Source: a virus. Taken from it: a stretch of DNA of 64,000 nt. Positions 51,823 through 63,192 of this stretch are shown here, piece after piece (the stretch's first letter is position 1; every line of letters starts with the position of its first letter). The stretch covers positions 246,859 through 310,858 of the IMG/VR virus record IMGVR_UViG_3300047558_000137. The stretch is one strand, 5' to 3'. Under the pieces are notes generated by a model. That model did no database searches, had not been told where the DNA came from, and was given only the letters and a program-made list of their open reading frames with translations. Both the position numbers and the translations under genes were made by a program.

Positions 51823-51896
51823 TGGAGCGGGATAGCGGAATCGAACCGCTGACTTGAACTTGGAAGGATCTCGTTTTACCATTAAACTAATCCCGC
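51823..51896 (-). tRNA. tRNA, probably Gly(TCC); anticodon stem imperfect
   Basis: Cloverleaf with T-arm AGCGG-TTCGATT-CCGCT, acceptor GCGGGAT/ATCCCGC, encoded CCA; loop CTTCCAA but only 3/5 stem pairs. Confidence 0.6.
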
Positions 51897-51903
51897 ATAA
51901 ACT

Positions 51904-51978
51904 TGGTACCTTGTGACAGTTTCGAACTGCCGACCCTCTCGGTGTAAACGAGACGCTCTACCCCTGAGCTAACAAGGC
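51904..51978 (-). tRNA. tRNA-Val(TAC)
   Basis: GCCTTGT-TA-GCTCAGGGGTAGAGC-G-TCTCG-TTTACAC-CGAGA...TTCGAAA; CCA encoded. Confidence 0.8.
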
Positions 51979-52081
51979 AACTATTTTTTGTACTCTTGCA
52001 AGTACTGATTTCTTTTTGAAATCTTTTTATATCTACTTCCTTTGCCTTTACTACCAAAGTTTTCTGTTTGACTATGGCAAA

Positions 52082-52157
52082 TTGGAGCGGGAAAGGAGGC
52101 TCGAACTCCCGACATCTACCTTGGCAAGGTAGTGCTCTACCAACTGAGCTATTCCCG
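52082..52157 (-). tRNA. tRNA-Gly(GCC)
   Basis: GCGGGAA-TA-GCTCAGTTGGTAGAGC-A-CTACC-TTGCCAA-GGTAG...GGGAGTTCGAGCCTCCT; CCA encoded. Confidence 0.85.
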
Positions 52158-52161
52158 CATA

Positions 52162-52238
52162 TTGGTTGCAGAGGCTGGATTCGAACCAGCGGCCTCCAGG
52201 TTATGAGCCTAGCGGGATGACCAACTTCCCTACCCTGC
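52162..52238 (-). tRNA. tRNA-Met(CAT), initiator-like (C1 opposite A72)
   Basis: CGCAGGG...CTAGG-CTCATAA-CCTGG...GCTGGTTCGAATCCAGC-CTCTGCA-A-CCA; unpaired 1:72 is the bacterial initiator hallmark. Confidence 0.75.
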
Positions 52239-52246
52239 GTCAATAT

Positions 52247-52882
52247 TTATACCAGCTGCTCTGCTACTAACAGAGAAACTGTATCAGCATCCAATTCGAT
52301 TTCGGTGCGAACATTAAGTTCCAACACCCGATCATTGATGCTTTGTTTTTCTTTTTTCAGGCTACGCATTTCTGCCTTGTAACCTTCAATTTGTTCTGCT
52401 GTCAACACGCCAGTGTCAACTGTGTCGCTGTACCCATACATACGGGTCTTTGAATCGCTGTCGCGAAGTTTCCGCAACTTGCCAGACAACACTTTTTCCG
52501 ATTCAACAACTTTGCCTTCGGTTAGGCTTTTTAGTTGGCCAATACGCTTATCAACGTAAGCGGCTTCTGTGAGCAAGTCTGCTACACCACTTGCGGCATT
52601 AGCACGACCAACTTGGGCACGAATTGCGTACAAGGCCTTTGTCAGCTTGTTACGGCGTGCATCGTTAGCAACAACGCCTTCACGAGCACAAGCCAACTCT
52701 TTAGCTGGATCCTGGAACTCGTTTAGTGAAAACGATGTAGTCACTTCAATGGTTTTTGTGTGTTCCTGGATTGTGTTTTGTAATGCGTTTGCTTTGCGAA
52801 GTGTAATCTTCATAATCGAGTCCCTTTCTGATTGAATTATAGCAGTGAGCGTATGGCAAGTCAATTGCCGGACAATGTGCAA
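52247..52882 (-). CDS. hypothetical coiled-coil protein (start possibly at internal MKITLRK)
   Basis: 211-aa ORF directly downstream of tRNA-Met. Confidence 0.45.
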   Translation of the reverse strand: MHIVRQLTCHTLTAIIQSERDSIMKITLRKANALQNTIQEHTKTIEVTTSFSLNEFQDPAKELACAREGVVANDARRNKLTKALYAIRAQVGRANAASGVADLLTEAAYVDKRIGQLKSLTEGKVVESEKVLSGKLRKLRDSDSKTRMYGYSDTVDTGVLTAEQIEGYKAEMRSLKKEKQSINDRVLELNVRTEIELDADTVSLLVAEQLV

Positions 52883-53108
52883 AATACATTAGCGGTTAGA
52901 CATTTTTAGGCGCCTAAATTACTAAAGCAAAATACAAGAGACAGAGGATACCAATATTCGTGAGTGTCAACAAACAAGGCAATTACGCCGGGGTCTCACA
53001 TCACTGGATCACGATTGTTAATGCAATATTTCCGTTCAAGGGAATATTACGGTGCAATCTCTCATCTCCATACACATCACCGTCCTGTTTTAATAAACAG
53101 GCAAAATC

Positions 53109-53291
53109 TTAACAATGTTCTTTAAACAACGCCTTGCGCTTTTCTTGGCCCAATGTGTTATCTAAAACATCTTTGCATCTATTCATCATACCAAAACATA
53201 AAATCAATAACTCATTCTGGTCATCGCACATCATAATCTGCTGTTCGATGGGTTGCATAAGTTCTTTTAATTTTTGATCAATAGGATGCAT
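53109..53291 (-). CDS. small hypothetical protein (track ORF 53109-53366 runs into tRNA-Cys; shortened to internal Met)
   Basis: MHPIDQKLKELMQPIEQQIMMCDDQNELLILCFGMMNRCKDVLDNTLGQEKRKALFKEHC. Confidence 0.3.
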   Translation of the reverse strand: MHPIDQKLKELMQPIEQQIMMCDDQNELLILCFGMMNRCKDVLDNTLGQEKRKALFKEHC

Positions 53292-53296
53292 AAACT

Positions 53297-53372
53297 TGGA
53301 GCACGGTGTAGGAGTTGAACCTACCTCATACCGGGTTTGCAATCCAGCGCATAACCGCTCTGCCAACCGTGC
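53297..53372 (-). tRNA. tRNA-Cys(GCA)
   Basis: GCACGGT...D-loop AGCGGTTA identical to E. coli tRNA-Cys, loop TTGCAAA, T-arm GTAGG-TTCAACT-CCTAC, CCA encoded. Confidence 0.75.
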
Positions 53373-61214: not shown

Positions 61215-61423
61215 GGTACGATCTCCGTCTACTTGTATTTATGCTCGTACCGCATTTTTAATTGCCAATAAATACTGTATGGAAAAGATTATCAACGAAA
61301 TGCGACAACTCTACGAATATGCCAAAGGCGAATATCGCCGAGGTCCCACGCACGTTTGTACAAATGAATATACTAATACATTTCCAAAAAAACTACCGCC
61401 TGCAATTGATCTAGACAAAACAC

Positions 61424-61663
61424 TTGTTAAGTCTGAGTTTATTACAGATGGATTACCACCGCAATACCATGGCAAACAAACGCACACTAGAGTTGATCGA
61501 AACATATATAGACCAACTCGCTAAACAGCGAACGTTTAACACACGCAGTGAATACCTAGCGTGGCGTAGTGGTGTCCTTGCAGGTTTAATTGCAACGATT
61601 GCAGATCAAGATTCCCTAATACGATCTGCACTAATATCAATAGTACGACGATCTATTAAGTAA
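61424..61663 (+). CDS. small hypothetical protein(s) on plus strand (alternative overlapping frame 61282-61524 also open)
   Basis: Two mutually overlapping plus-strand ORFs between HNH gene and tRNA-Gln; which one is real cannot be decided from sequence alone. Confidence 0.25.
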   Translation: MLSLSLLQMDYHRNTMANKRTLELIETYIDQLAKQRTFNTRSEYLAWRSGVLAGLIATIADQDSLIRSALISIVRRSIK

Positions 61664-61737
61664 TGGCACGGGAACTAGGGATCGAACCTAGGACGACAGA
61701 GTCAAAGTCTGTTGTGTTACCTCTACACCATTCCCGA
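61664..61737 (-). tRNA. tRNA-Gln(TTG)
   Basis: TCGGGAA-TG-GTGTAGAGGTAACAC-A-ACAGA-CTTTGAC-TCTGT...CTAGGTTCGATCCCTAG-TTCCCGT-G-CCA; weak 1:72 pair as in bacterial tRNA-Gln. Confidence 0.7.
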
Positions 61738-61906
61738 ACAAATTTGGCTGAGCGTATGGAGTTGTACCCCAGGCATTAATCGGCTTTTATAGCCCCCACT
61801 CAAGTAGGACCACCGTACCTCTGTTCTTTCTGCAGAAACTCTCGAGCAGTGTACACTACTGCCCTCCACTCCTAGACTAGTGTGTACATGTCTACGAATA
61901 GTACCT

Positions 61907-61982
61907 TGGCGCCCCGTAGGGGTTTCGATCCCCTTGCCTCGACAGTGACAGTGTCGCGCTCTCCCAATTGAGCTAACGGAGC
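61907..61982 (-). tRNA. tRNA-Asp(GTC)
   Basis: GCTCCGT-TA-GCTCAATTGGGAGAGC-G-CGACA-CTGTCAC-TGTCG...AGGGGATCGAAACCCCT; CCA encoded. Confidence 0.8.
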
Positions 61983-62623
61983 AATTTTAATTCTTTGCAA
62001 ATATAATCATAGATAACTCTATGACCTTTTCTATTTGGATGATAACCATCGGGAAAGAAATATTCTTTGTTATCACCTAACGATAACTGATGGTCTTTCA
62101 TTACTATGATACGATCTAATTCATTTAGATCAAATTGCCGATCAATTTTATTCATCCAGTCACTGACCCAAATTGGAGGATGCTGGAACTCGGGCCATAT
62201 TAATCTAGTAACACTAGGTATAATGGGCACAAGATTTTTAAAATCTTTAATTAAGTCTAGATTAATTTCACTACACCCGCCAATACAGTGTATAACAACA
62301 CCCATGCTGTTTAATCTAGTATAGGCATCAATTAAACATTCACGACTTTTTTCTAGTAACTTATCTATAGTATTGTATTGTTCAAACTTATGATAAGGTC
62401 TTAAATCGCGAAGTGGGTCTGATTGAAACCAAAAGATGTAATCAAATTTGTATGTAGGAATCAGCGATGAAGATATTTTATTGCTAAATCCCACACGAGA
62501 TACATTTTTTACATCTGCACCTGCTTCTGCAAAATACTGGGCAAGTCCTTGGTGTTCAACTGCACCATTAGGTGCGCCTAGCTCACCAACTCCCCAACTG
62601 TCTCCTGCTATACAAATTTTCAT
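61973..62623 (-). CDS. SGNH/GDSL-family hydrolase
   Basis: N-terminal MKICIAGDSWGVGELG block I; C-terminal DGYHPNRKGH matches block V DxxH. Confidence 0.6.
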   Translation of the reverse strand: MKICIAGDSWGVGELGAPNGAVEHQGLAQYFAEAGADVKNVSRVGFSNKISSSLIPTYKFDYIFWFQSDPLRDLRPYHKFEQYNTIDKLLEKSRECLIDAYTRLNSMGVVIHCIGGCSEINLDLIKDFKNLVPIIPSVTRLIWPEFQHPPIWVSDWMNKIDRQFDLNELDRIIVMKDHQLSLGDNKEYFFPDGYHPNRKGHRVIYDYICKELKLLR

Positions 62624-62634
62624 ACTATGTTAAA

Positions 62635-62719
62635 TGGTGGATGCGGCTGGAGTCGAACCAGCAGTGCCAGGGGCGGCGGATTTACAGTCCACTGGGGTTA
62701 CCAATTTTCCTACACATCC
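62635..62719 (-). tRNA. tRNA-Tyr(GTA), class II long variable arm
   Basis: GGATGTG...GTGGA-CTGTAAA-TCCGC plus 13-nt variable region, GCTGGTTCGACTCCAGC-CGCATCC-A-CCA. Confidence 0.7.
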
Positions 62720-62724
62720 AAATT

Positions 62725-63111
62725 TTATCTAACTGCTTTTGCTCTAGCTGTGACCATATCATCGATGTTGCCTTTAATAACAACATTGGTGTAAGTATCG
62801 ACTAGACCGCTAGCATGATCAGTAACCCTATTGTCAGGTTCGTGATACGTTCTAATACGTTCCTCGCCTGCTTGATAGCGTTCTGTATCTTTATGGAAAT
62901 GCGCTTGTACCCTACTAAGGCATGTTATATACGCATTTCGTTTATTGTCTTCACGACTCCTACTGCTAGTACCATTGGCTTTTATTCCAGTGGGTACGTG
63001 AATGCAACGACAACAGTTTTGATGTTTGTTACGGTGCTGACCTCCTTTACCGGTGCCAGAATACCATTCATATATAAATTGTTCTTCCGTAACTTTCATA
63101 ACTGCTTCCAT
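62725..63111 (-). CDS. peptidyl-tRNA hydrolase domain protein (RF-1 family GGQ; ArfB/PrfH-like ribosome rescue or release factor fragment)
   Basis: [26 protein letters not shown] = GGQ loop as in [42 protein letters not shown] = release-factor IRTYNFPQGRVTDHRI block; 128 aa, no codon-recognition domains. Confidence 0.8.
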   Translation of the reverse strand: [128 protein letters not shown]

Positions 63112-63116
63112 AAAAT

Positions 63117-63192
63117 GGTACTCGGTACGGGAATCGAACCCGTCTTACTAACGTGAAAGGCTAGTGTCCTAAACCGATAGACGAACCGAGCA
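63117..63192 (-). tRNA. tRNA-Glu(TTC)
   Basis: GCTCGGT-TC-GTCTATCGGTTTAGGAC-A-CTAGC-CTTTCAC-GTTAG...ACGGGTTCGATTCCCGT-ACCGAGT-A-CCA. Confidence 0.75.

Follow-up and report, generated by a model that had tools for sequence, protein, structure and literature searches.

A GOLLD RNA with an embedded tRNA-like module in the tRNA array of an uncultured jumbo phage

What is the role, in the genome of a virus, of an 11.4-kb island in which runs of tRNA genes alternate with genes for seemingly unrelated enzymes? We addressed this question for a 64,000-nucleotide (nt) stretch of DNA, hereafter the window, comprising positions 246,859 to 310,858 of the IMG/VR virus record IMGVR_UViG_3300047558_000137, in which tail, helicase and GroEL genes provide a phage context for the island at 51823-63191. 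The island is the tRNA array of an uncultured jumbo phage, with 25 canonical, co-oriented tRNAs for 19 amino acids on the minus strand, and it belongs to a known arrangement that combines a phage tRNA array, the structured RNA GOLLD and HNH endonuclease genes. Its most distinctive element is the GOLLD RNA gene, which carries a tRNA-like module in its variable linker. Overall, we consider it probable that the island is a jumbo-phage array made up of these tRNAs, a tRNA remnant, GOLLD, inserted HNH genes and accessory proteins, in which several promoters would supply the tRNAs, the GOLLD RNA would form a cage and its embedded module would serve as an anticodon arm.

The tRNA complement was assessed with ARAGORN and with the Rfam tRNA model. 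ARAGORN called exactly 27 tRNAs, every one of them on the minus strand and together spanning 51823 to 63191, in agreement with the at least 27, and with the span, proposed in the initial annotation of this DNA, and 26 of the 27 score above the Rfam gathering threshold (43-68 bits). The set is as broad as previously described, with a count of 19 amino acids in place of about 18 and Trp alone absent. Four gene copies serve Arg (UCU twice, ACG and UCG), and two copies each serve Gly, Leu, Lys, Thr and Ala. A 3' CCA is encoded after a well-paired acceptor stem in 25 of the calls. Those without it are a 'tRNA-Ala(AGC)' at 55758-55830 and an Arg-UCU element at 53929-54000, both on the minus strand. 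The former was called by ARAGORN only, with no Rfam match at E ≤ 1 and a folding z-score of +0.11; we rejected it as a functional tRNA, and it is probably a degenerate tRNA remnant. The latter is the module embedded in GOLLD.

The GOLLD RNA was detected on the minus strand at 53602-54063 by the Rfam model RF02032, which is matched from position 1 to 416 of 416 with 191.7 bits (gathering threshold 150) and an E-value of 2e-52. It had been overlooked in the initial inventory of the island, together with a gene for a 188-amino-acid (aa) protein, the open reading frames (ORFs) 57107-57661 and 57635-58129 and several conserved non-coding blocks. The RF02032 model spans the conserved 3' domain only. 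To define the whole gene, we took the 1.36-kb ORF-poor interval that separates tRNA-Arg (54736) from tRNA-Cys (53372) and aligned it to related phage contigs, drawn from ten IMG/VR contigs (L001-L010) that harbor homologs of the island's radical-SAM enzyme at 65-70% identity. The alignment revealed a conserved block of 1,140 nt (53579-54718) that is 77% identical to L001 and L002 without conservation of any ORF, and this non-coding block, including a promoter-like sequence, is conserved in L001, L002, L007 and L009. The promoter (TTGACA-17-AACAAT, 54678-54706, minus strand; TACAAT in relatives) is conserved in all five aligned phages and, since it sits at the 5' edge of the block, indicates a GOLLD gene of about 1.09 kb (53579-54671, minus strand), with a 5' domain at approximately 54064-54671 followed by the Rfam-modelled 3' domain at 53602-54063. 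The 5' end of the gene is thus set by promoter position, and the 5' domain is defined by contiguity and RNA-level conservation with L001 and L002. The conserved block is flanked by tRNA-Arg 65 nt upstream and tRNA-Cys 205 nt downstream. Because they lie inside the conserved RNA, the ORFs at 53393-53716 (107 aa) and at 54138-54332 (64 aa) were discarded as spurious; the first of them is nevertheless called by a metagenome gene caller.

A second cloverleaf-like junction, four-way and with the T-arm GGTTCAATTCC, lies in the 5' domain (54495-54612, minus strand). Its predicted fold has an energy of -44.1 kcal/mol (z = -4.1), and the alignment shows conservation of its acceptor-like and T-arm sequences; the L001 counterpart is mis-called by ARAGORN as an 88-nt 'tRNA-Pro'. 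Only about 20 of 55 related GOLLDs have a similar T-loop motif at this distance.

GOLLD RNAs have been reported from phage tRNA islands as 14-mer cages that enclose a linker, sometimes with a tRNA in it, and they have no known function; they are induced during lysis and occur also in Mycobacterium tRNA arrays beside HNH genes (PMC12286853, PMC12990946, PMC6582537). Multimeric (10- to 14-mer) cages are known for the env-38 and S. agalactiae GOLLDs (PMC12286853, PMC12990946). By analogy with the solved GOLLD structures, the transcript from the window would likewise assemble into a multimeric RNA cage, with the linker and the tRNA-like modules inside. It resembles the published GOLLD (RF02032; Weinberg et al. 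2009; Kretsch et al. 2025, PMC12286853) in its full 3'-domain match, long variable 5' domain, location in a phage tRNA island and linker tRNA, but it is longer (about 1.09 kb versus the approximately 800 nt usually quoted), has the second cloverleaf-like junction in its 5' domain and embeds a module from a lineage almost entirely restricted to anticodons with U36.

The embedded module (53929-54000, minus strand) bears the Arg anticodon UCU and scores 60.5 bits against the Rfam tRNA model, yet it lacks CCA, contains a U2.U71 mismatch and has U20 in place of A20. It lies about 72 nt upstream of the motif GTARCTCGCAAGGTGAAAT, as do its counterparts in loci L081-L174, L180 and L181. The modules of the window, L001, L002, L007 and L009, which carry UCU, CUU and GUU anticodons, are 60-77% identical to each other and share the same acceptor sequence and flanks, whereas their identity to free-standing tRNAs with the same anticodon is only 24-47%. 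We extended this comparison by retrieving 94 further IMG/VR stretches with one 19-nt GOLLD motif and inspecting the linker in each. Among 61 distinct GOLLDs, the anticodon was GUU in 34, UUU in 11, CUU in six, UCU in three, UGU in two, GAU in one and AUG in one, with irregular loops in the remaining three. A bacterial genome collection yielded two true GOLLD matches, both on contigs of metagenome-assembled genomes (probably phage), with anticodons GAU and GUU. CCA is encoded by no embedded copy, whereas the free tRNAs flanking them in the same loci do encode it.

The pattern of conservation within the module is uneven. In an alignment of 40 homologs, cloverleaf pairing reaches 93.5%, against 70.8% in shuffled sequences and 34-48% with slid partners, with double changes at 19 of the 21 cloverleaf pairs. 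Pairing amounts to 96-100% in the D, anticodon and T stems, where compensatory changes occur, and the outer acceptor pairs 1-72, 2-71 and 3-70 are broken in about 40% of homologs. The anticodon loop follows the pattern C/A32-U33-N-(U)-U36-A37-A38, and parsimony on 61 homologs assigns about 18 changes to position 34, six to position 35, three to position 36, four to A37, two to A38 and none to U33. Near-identical backbones carry different anticodons in L084 (GUU) and L130 (UGU), L086 (GUU) and L125 (UUU), L085 (GUU) and L098 (UUU), the window (UCU) and L139 (GUU), and L181 (GUU) and L122 (UUU), and in the L086/L125 pair the discriminator is T in both despite the switch. As judged from their sequences, the modules embedded in about 60 related GOLLDs form a single homologous lineage, in which the fold and the U33/U36-A37-A38 loop context appear to be under selection, the features required for maturation and charging do not, and the wobble base seems to be free or diversifying.

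Set against a canonical elongator tRNA, the embedded element has the cloverleaf with its conserved tertiary nucleotides, but lacks the intact 7-bp acceptor stem with CCA, as well as the conserved anticodon and synthetase identity elements expected from E. coli rules. In E. coli, A20 is the major identity element for ArgRS. An intact cloverleaf core with a fixed loop, combined with a missing CCA, a weak acceptor end and a switching wobble base, suggests a displayed or stored anticodon arm and not a routine decoding tRNA. The principal alternative is that the element is an ordinary tRNA held on a carrier transcript in 'inhibited storage', from which RNase P and RNase Z would excise it for CCA-tailing and charging, its anticodon tracking the demand for Asn, Lys, Arg, Thr or Ile. 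The synthetases for these five amino acids reportedly read the anticodon, so that a point mutation can switch tRNA identity, and the Rfam score, the retained tertiary-interaction nucleotides and the conservation of all inner stems are as this alternative would have them; a storage hypothesis has also been put forward in the literature (PMC12990946, PMC12286853). It accords poorly, however, with the lack of CCA in every embedded copy, as opposed to all 25 free-standing tRNAs of the window and the flanking tRNAs of related loci, with the mismatched outer acceptor pairs, with U20 in the window copy where the free Arg-UCU tRNA has A20, and with a discriminator that stays constant across an anticodon switch. 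Moreover, excision would cut GOLLD within its 3' domain, at the linker, and a free-standing Arg-UCU tRNA is already encoded 0.7 kb upstream. We therefore regard an ordinary stored tRNA as rather unlikely, though it is the strongest of the alternatives considered here.

We think instead that the embedded module would act as a displayed or stored anticodon arm tied to a conflict between phage and host over tRNAs. Its loop signature is that of tRNAs for A-starting codons (Asn, Lys, Arg-AGA, Thr and Ile), a class to which the well-known Lys and Asn targets of anticodon nucleases belong, and phage tRNAs can counter such nucleases (PMC10264068, PMC11555353). In its most specific form, which we offer as speculation with a small chance of being correct, this proposal would have GOLLD bait, trap or titrate a host factor that attacks or modifies tRNAs for A-starting codons, or hold a nuclease-proof reserve of them, and thus serve as an RNA-only anti-defence device. 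An anticodon partner within GOLLD was also sought: a mutual-information scan of 563 flanking columns, covering about 110 nt upstream of the module and the remaining 3' domain downstream, found no complementary covariation with positions 34 and 35 (maximum 0.35 of 1.39 bits). No published description of a U36-restricted embedded lineage was found in the accessible GOLLD literature.

Several points weigh against the reading of the module as a displayed anticodon arm inside a cage. Host enzymes can mature tRNAs that lack CCA, as happens with some T4 tRNAs, so the module may yet be a genuine tRNA. The sequences behind the U36 rule belong to one GOLLD clade and were collected with a single 19-nt motif, and the tree underlying the parsimony counts is a rough neighbor-joining tree of the flanking GOLLD sequence. 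The GOLLD of Xanthomonas phage X1 has a short linker without a tRNA-like module, and a Phe-like tRNA has been reported in an actinobacterial (Mycolicibacterium) GOLLD (PMC12990946); because of these two cases, the rule does not extend to all GOLLDs. Finally, cage formation is proposed here by analogy with other GOLLDs and not from the sequence of the window.

The module embedded in the GOLLD linker of L092 has a UUA (ochre-reading) anticodon, and ARAGORN reports in the phage contig L025 (8669-8744) a tRNA with a CUA anticodon (amber suppressor or 'Pyl'). These observations may hint at stop-codon reassignment or suppression.

The GOLLD and its surroundings recur in related phages. Six contigs are syntenic with the island (L001, L002 and L007-L010); the lengths of L001, L002 and L010 range from 240 to 354 kb. 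A shared core, arranged as radical SAM - Leu(UAG) - GOLLD - Cys - 188-aa gene - Met - Val - Gly(UCC), is complete in L001, L002, L007, L009 and L010, and L008 stops just after Leu(UAG). The run Asp-Gln-Ile-Asn-Thr-Ala-Pro is likewise common to relatives, and the Met-Val-Gly(UCC) end of the island is found in L001, L002, L007 and L009. Among GenBank phages, a megablast search with the island returned only tRNA-sized matches and no close relative, a tblastn search with the radical-SAM enzyme found no homolog, and a blastn search with GOLLD gave a single match of about 180 nt, at 70% identity, in Xanthomonas phage X1. A 316-kb phage contig with a 50% identical radical-SAM homolog (L019/L020) carries 25 tRNAs and, in the same island, a permuted tmRNA (6363-6693; tag ANDELYALAA).

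Phage X1 (OQ427096, 200 kb), a cultured jumbo phage, has an island of this kind, in which about 30 tRNAs share one orientation, small ORFs lie among them and a GOLLD scoring 179 bits occupies a 1-kb gap left unannotated in GenBank (OQ427096 137832-138858; L175 5377-6403); the DNA similarity of X1 to the window is nonetheless confined to about 180 nt of GOLLD. The Mycobacterium arrays (PMC6582537; Morgado et al. 2020, as cited in PMC12286853) are also alike in having about 30 clustered tRNAs, with GOLLD placed among them, HNH genes and a tRNA or pseudo-tRNA within GOLLD. They differ in residing on actinobacterial chromosomes, where they are thought to have been horizontally acquired, instead of in a jumbo phage genome, and in an embedded tRNA reported as Phe-like or as a pseudogene, where the lineage of the window is Asn-, Lys- or Arg-like. 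The tRNA regions of T5-like, T4-like and Moogle-like phages (PMC11555353, PMC12482277) share the clustering of tRNAs with small ORFs and homing endonucleases, for which codon supply and escape from anticodon nucleases have been proposed, but they bear no sequence relationship to this island.

The canonical tRNAs are all located on the minus strand, and each was called by ARAGORN, matched by Rfam and encodes CCA. From the upstream end, tRNA-Glu(UUC) (63116-63191; 54.5 bits) and tRNA-Tyr(GUA) (62635-62719; 47.4 bits) flank the gene for an RF-1 domain protein and are followed by tRNA-Asp(GUC) (61907-61982) and tRNA-Gln(UUG) (61664-61737), by a run of Ile(GAU) (60748-60822), Asn(GUU) (60627-60702), Thr(UGU) (60465-60540) and Ala(UGC) (60337-60411), and by tRNA-Ser(GCU) (59794-59884) and tRNA-Pro(UGG) (59712-59789). 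A further run comprises Arg(UCG) (58480-58556), Thr(GGU) (58303-58378), Arg(ACG) (58222-58296) and His(GUG) (58140-58213). Next come tRNA-Leu(UAG) (57009-57092), tRNA-Lys(CUU) (56287-56361), tRNA-Lys(UUU) (56207-56282), tRNA-Phe(GAA) (55475-55550), tRNA-Leu(CAA) (55386-55468) and the free-standing tRNA-Arg(UCU) (54736-54810), which has A20 and lies directly upstream of the GOLLD promoter. Downstream of GOLLD are tRNA-Cys(GCA) (53297-53372) and a terminal run of Met(CAU) (52163-52239), Gly(GCC) (52083-52158), Val(UAC) (51904-51978) and Gly(UCC) (51823-51896). The sole tRNA-Met(CAU) has the C1xA72 mismatch typical of bacterial initiators and only two G-C pairs at the bottom of its anticodon stem. 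Neither an elongator Met tRNA nor an Ile-CAU (lysidine) tRNA was found in the window, though AUA accounts for 22% of Ile codons.

The long ORFs of the window contain 16,309 codons, of which the island tRNAs can read about 82% under simple wobble rules, a coverage that would bring the phage close to self-sufficiency in decoding. The gaps in the window are Trp, Leu-UUA, Ile-AUA and Ser-UCN. In most codon boxes the tRNA set fits the codons preferred by the phage (41% G+C), as would be expected if the island served codon compensation alone, supplying tRNAs for codons that the host decodes poorly, with GOLLD and the proteins as unrelated passengers. Phage tRNAs have classically been explained in this way (see PMC10264068, PMC12482277). 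In this case, however, the set is nearly complete, at 19 amino acids, and not confined to rare codons, while UUA, the most used Leu codon (32%), and Ile AUA have no matching tRNA in the window. In addition, GOLLD is tied to tRNA islands across many phages (PMC12286853), which argues that it is not a random passenger. Codon compensation as the whole explanation thus appears unlikely.

The richness of the array depends on the yardstick. Described in the initial annotation as far richer than T4-like clusters, it does exceed T4 itself, which has eight tRNAs. Among large phages its size is ordinary, as illustrated by the approximately 30 tRNAs of X1 and by Shigella phage Sf14, with 26 tRNAs for 19 amino acids (PMC12482277).

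Candidate transcription signals were identified along the minus strand of the array, where strong promoter-like sites lie directly upstream of tRNA runs. One with a perfect consensus (TTGACA-16-TATAAT, 12 of 12 matches) is located at 60738-60711 within the Ile-Asn-Thr-Ala run, another (TTGGCT-17-TATAAT) at 54851-54823 near tRNA-Arg(UCU), a third at 63270-63242 and a fourth at 52864-52836, upstream of the 188-aa gene. Directly after the last tRNA, an intrinsic-terminator-like hairpin (51796-51817, minus strand) combines a 9-bp stem with a T run. The island had been envisaged as possibly one processed polycistron. This now seems unlikely, since strong internal promoter-like sites, one of perfect consensus and one conserved, argue for several transcription units. 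We propose that the array would be transcribed from several sigma-70-type promoters, ending at the terminator, that host RNases would cut the precursors into tRNAs and that these would keep phage genes translated if host tRNAs run short, are degraded or are cut by anticodon nucleases. Counting against the multi-promoter part of this proposal, the promoter scan taken in its entirety does no better than chance (34 sites versus 32.6 in shuffled sequence), and the promoters are cited for their position and conservation alone, with conservation established for the GOLLD promoter only.

Between and beside the tRNA runs lie the protein genes, most of whose previous labels were borne out by family models. 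At the upstream end, a 128-aa protein with an RF-1 GGQ domain (62725-63111, minus strand; Pfam RF-1 52.1 bits, cutoff 35) aligns with residues 236-356 (of 371) of the RF1 structure 1zbt and corresponds to a bare release-factor domain 3. In this alignment it has no codon-recognition domains and no ArfB-type basic C-terminal tail, since it ends where domain 3 of RF1 ends. An ArfB/ICT1-type rescue factor was considered and rejected, the GGQ domain being present without the tail extension. Homologs at 39% identity occur in the islands of L001, L002 and L010. The adjacent 216-aa gene (61973-62623, minus strand) had been labeled an SGNH hydrolase. The motifs IAGDSWG and DGYHPNRKGH (GDS...DxxH) can be recognized by eye, but no match was found in Pfam, PHROG, NCBIfam or PDB sequences, and the assignment stands as a possible one. 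The label of the 390-aa radical-SAM-like enzyme (58534-59706, minus strand) is weak: the sequence KCNLDCDYC provides the CxxxCxxC motif, the C-terminal region is Cys-rich and PHROG_13987 matches at 4e-9, whereas Pfam Radical_SAM falls below its cutoff (24.1 versus 29.5 bits) and weak NCBIfam matches to twitch/SPASM families are all far below cutoffs.

Also confirmed was a 157-aa Cys-based (HCxxGxxRS) phosphatase of the dual-specificity/protein tyrosine phosphatase (DSP/PTP) type (56455-56928, minus strand), which matches Pfam Tc-R-P at 32.9 bits, with DSPc below cutoff (26.8 versus 33.5 bits) and weak PDB matches to PTPs; homologs at 63-83% identity are found in the islands of L002 and L004-L009. 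The 184-aa class I S-adenosylmethionine-dependent methyltransferase (54831-55385; Pfam Methyltransf_23, 42.7 bits) proved to be encoded on the plus strand, and a 30% identical homolog in L009 is also inverted. Just downstream of the island, the 201-aa calcineurin-like metallophosphoesterase (51135-51740, minus strand; Pfam Metallophos 30.6 bits, PHROG_547 4e-47) is matched within the islands of L004-L009 and L019 by homologs that are 70-83% identical. Two ORFs, 57635-58129 (minus strand, 164 aa) and 57107-57661 (plus strand, 184 aa), have no Pfam matches; the latter has 44% identical homologs in L008 and L009, where it is also inverted.

Both HNH endonuclease labels were confirmed as well. HNH 1 (128 aa, 59901-60287, minus strand; Pfam HNH 26.3 bits, cutoff 21.4) lies between tRNA-Ala and the tRNA-Ser/Pro pair, and HNH 2 (128 aa, 60828-61214, minus strand; PHROG HNH families down to 2e-23) between tRNA-Gln and tRNA-Ile, accompanied by a stretch of about 450 nt (61215-61663) without any relative. 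The two are 48% identical paralogs with no homolog in L001-L080. In L008 and L009, the Asp-Gln-Ile-Asn-Thr-Ala-Pro runs are free of HNH genes, with a Gln-Ile spacer of 170 nt and an Ala-Pro spacer of 8 nt. From their absence in the same runs of relatives and their paralogy we infer that the two genes are lineage-specific insertions of selfish homing endonucleases. At 14 related loci, the place where the GOLLD 5' domain is expected is taken by a 139-aa HNH endonuclease from the family of the two window genes (ORF start about 640 nt upstream of the motif); either the 5' domain has been replaced or interrupted there, or this HNH family targets both GOLLD and tRNA islands.

Do these proteins maintain the phage tRNAs? 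According to the initial annotation, the island is a translation-takeover and tRNA-maintenance module, whose interleaved enzymes would repair, modify or process the tRNAs. The first half of this description agrees with the dense tRNA supply, the codon coverage and the RF-1 GGQ protein. For the maintenance half it can be said that the Cys phosphatase, metallophosphoesterase, radical-SAM enzyme and RF-1 protein recur in related tRNA islands, the first two together with the 188-aa protein and the GGQ protein more distantly, that the RF-1 GGQ domain is a translation-related hydrolase and that enzymes of the Cys-phosphatase fold include RNA 5'-phosphatases. T4 encodes a real tRNA repair pathway, composed of Pnkp and Rnl1. 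In contrast, searches of the scanned ORFs of the 64-kb window with Pfam, PHROG and NCBIfam revealed neither this pathway nor any other RNA ligase, polynucleotide kinase, CCA-adding enzyme or recognizable tRNA-modifying family, and none of the island enzymes fits a known repair or modification family. The radical-SAM homologs, moreover, have no tRNA within 10 kb in 33 of the 48 contigs scanned, and only two or three in three more, indicating that this enzyme is not intrinsically tRNA-linked. The HNH genes are best seen as lineage-specific insertions, and co-location in an insertion-tolerant region would explain the associations equally well. A maintenance module is accordingly improbable in our assessment, and the accessory proteins are proteins that recur in related islands with no assignable tRNA function.

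The 188-aa protein (52247-52813, minus strand), which has its own promoter-like site and belongs to PHROG_25230 (unknown function), is the commonest protein neighbor of this GOLLD clade: its family lies within 5 kb in 27 of the 57 loci with enough flank, and the strand is the same in every case. Metagenomes contain 1,074 homologs of the protein, and an identical copy is recorded on a 374-kb Joint Genome Institute metagenomic contig. An AlphaFold model predicts an all-helical fold (mean predicted local distance difference test score 87.7), with structural matches only to uncharacterized proteins of large phages (CcrColossus, Vp_R1 and pEa_SNUABM_47) and two giant viruses; comparison of the model with the PDB gave no informative match, the best being 3kdq (function unknown, E = 0.015).

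Further non-coding conservation was detected on the minus strand. An element of about 190 nt (52915-53108), which separates tRNA-Cys from the promoter of the 188-aa gene, is 75-83% identical in at least 10 related loci, contains stops in all frames and has a consensus fold of 41 pairs, 11 of which show compensatory changes; it matches no Rfam family. Just upstream of tRNA-Phe, a block at 55551-55745 that includes a long hairpin of about 120 nt is 87-96% identical to L001, L002, L010, L170, L008 and L009, exceeding the conservation of neighboring proteins. The block displays little covariation because it is too conserved; it may represent a small RNA or an element involved in processing or regulation. 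The ORF-free interval that separates tRNA-Lys(UUU) from the tRNA remnant (55831-56206) includes parts with 89-94% identity to L170, L100, L009, L152, L130 and L138.

Downstream of the island, three segments (37552-39171, 39555-47913 and 49029-49985, mostly on the minus strand) encode GroEL, a sugar-nucleotide and glycosyl/methyl-transferase cluster, and a TRAP-type DctP solute-binding protein. The GroEL has about 70% protein identity to groL on Salmonella and Acinetobacter records in the phage collection, and the sugar cluster includes a UDP-galactopyranose mutase, a 4,6-dehydratase-like epimerase, enzymes resembling glycosyltransferase families GT9, GT17 and GT34 and a C-methyltransferase.

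Taken alone, the island changes little, adding one more uncultured jumbo phage with a near-complete tRNA set. Its value resides in GOLLD, which is among the largest structured RNAs of bacteria and phages and was recently shown to form a cage larger than the ribosome. What is new is a systematic and testable property of the tRNA-like insert of GOLLD, drawn from the window and about 60 relatives, which narrows the search for GOLLD partners to factors that recognize the anticodon arms of tRNAs for Asn, Lys, Arg, Thr and Ile, and which is joined by the nomination of the helical 188-aa protein as the one most often encoded beside GOLLD. The results also call for caution in annotation, given that gene callers place spurious ORFs inside GOLLD and that GenBank records such as that of X1 omit it. 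If the embedded module is indeed a displayed anticodon arm, GOLLD would fit into the arms race between phages and their hosts, for instance against a Lys- or Asn-directed anticodon nuclease.

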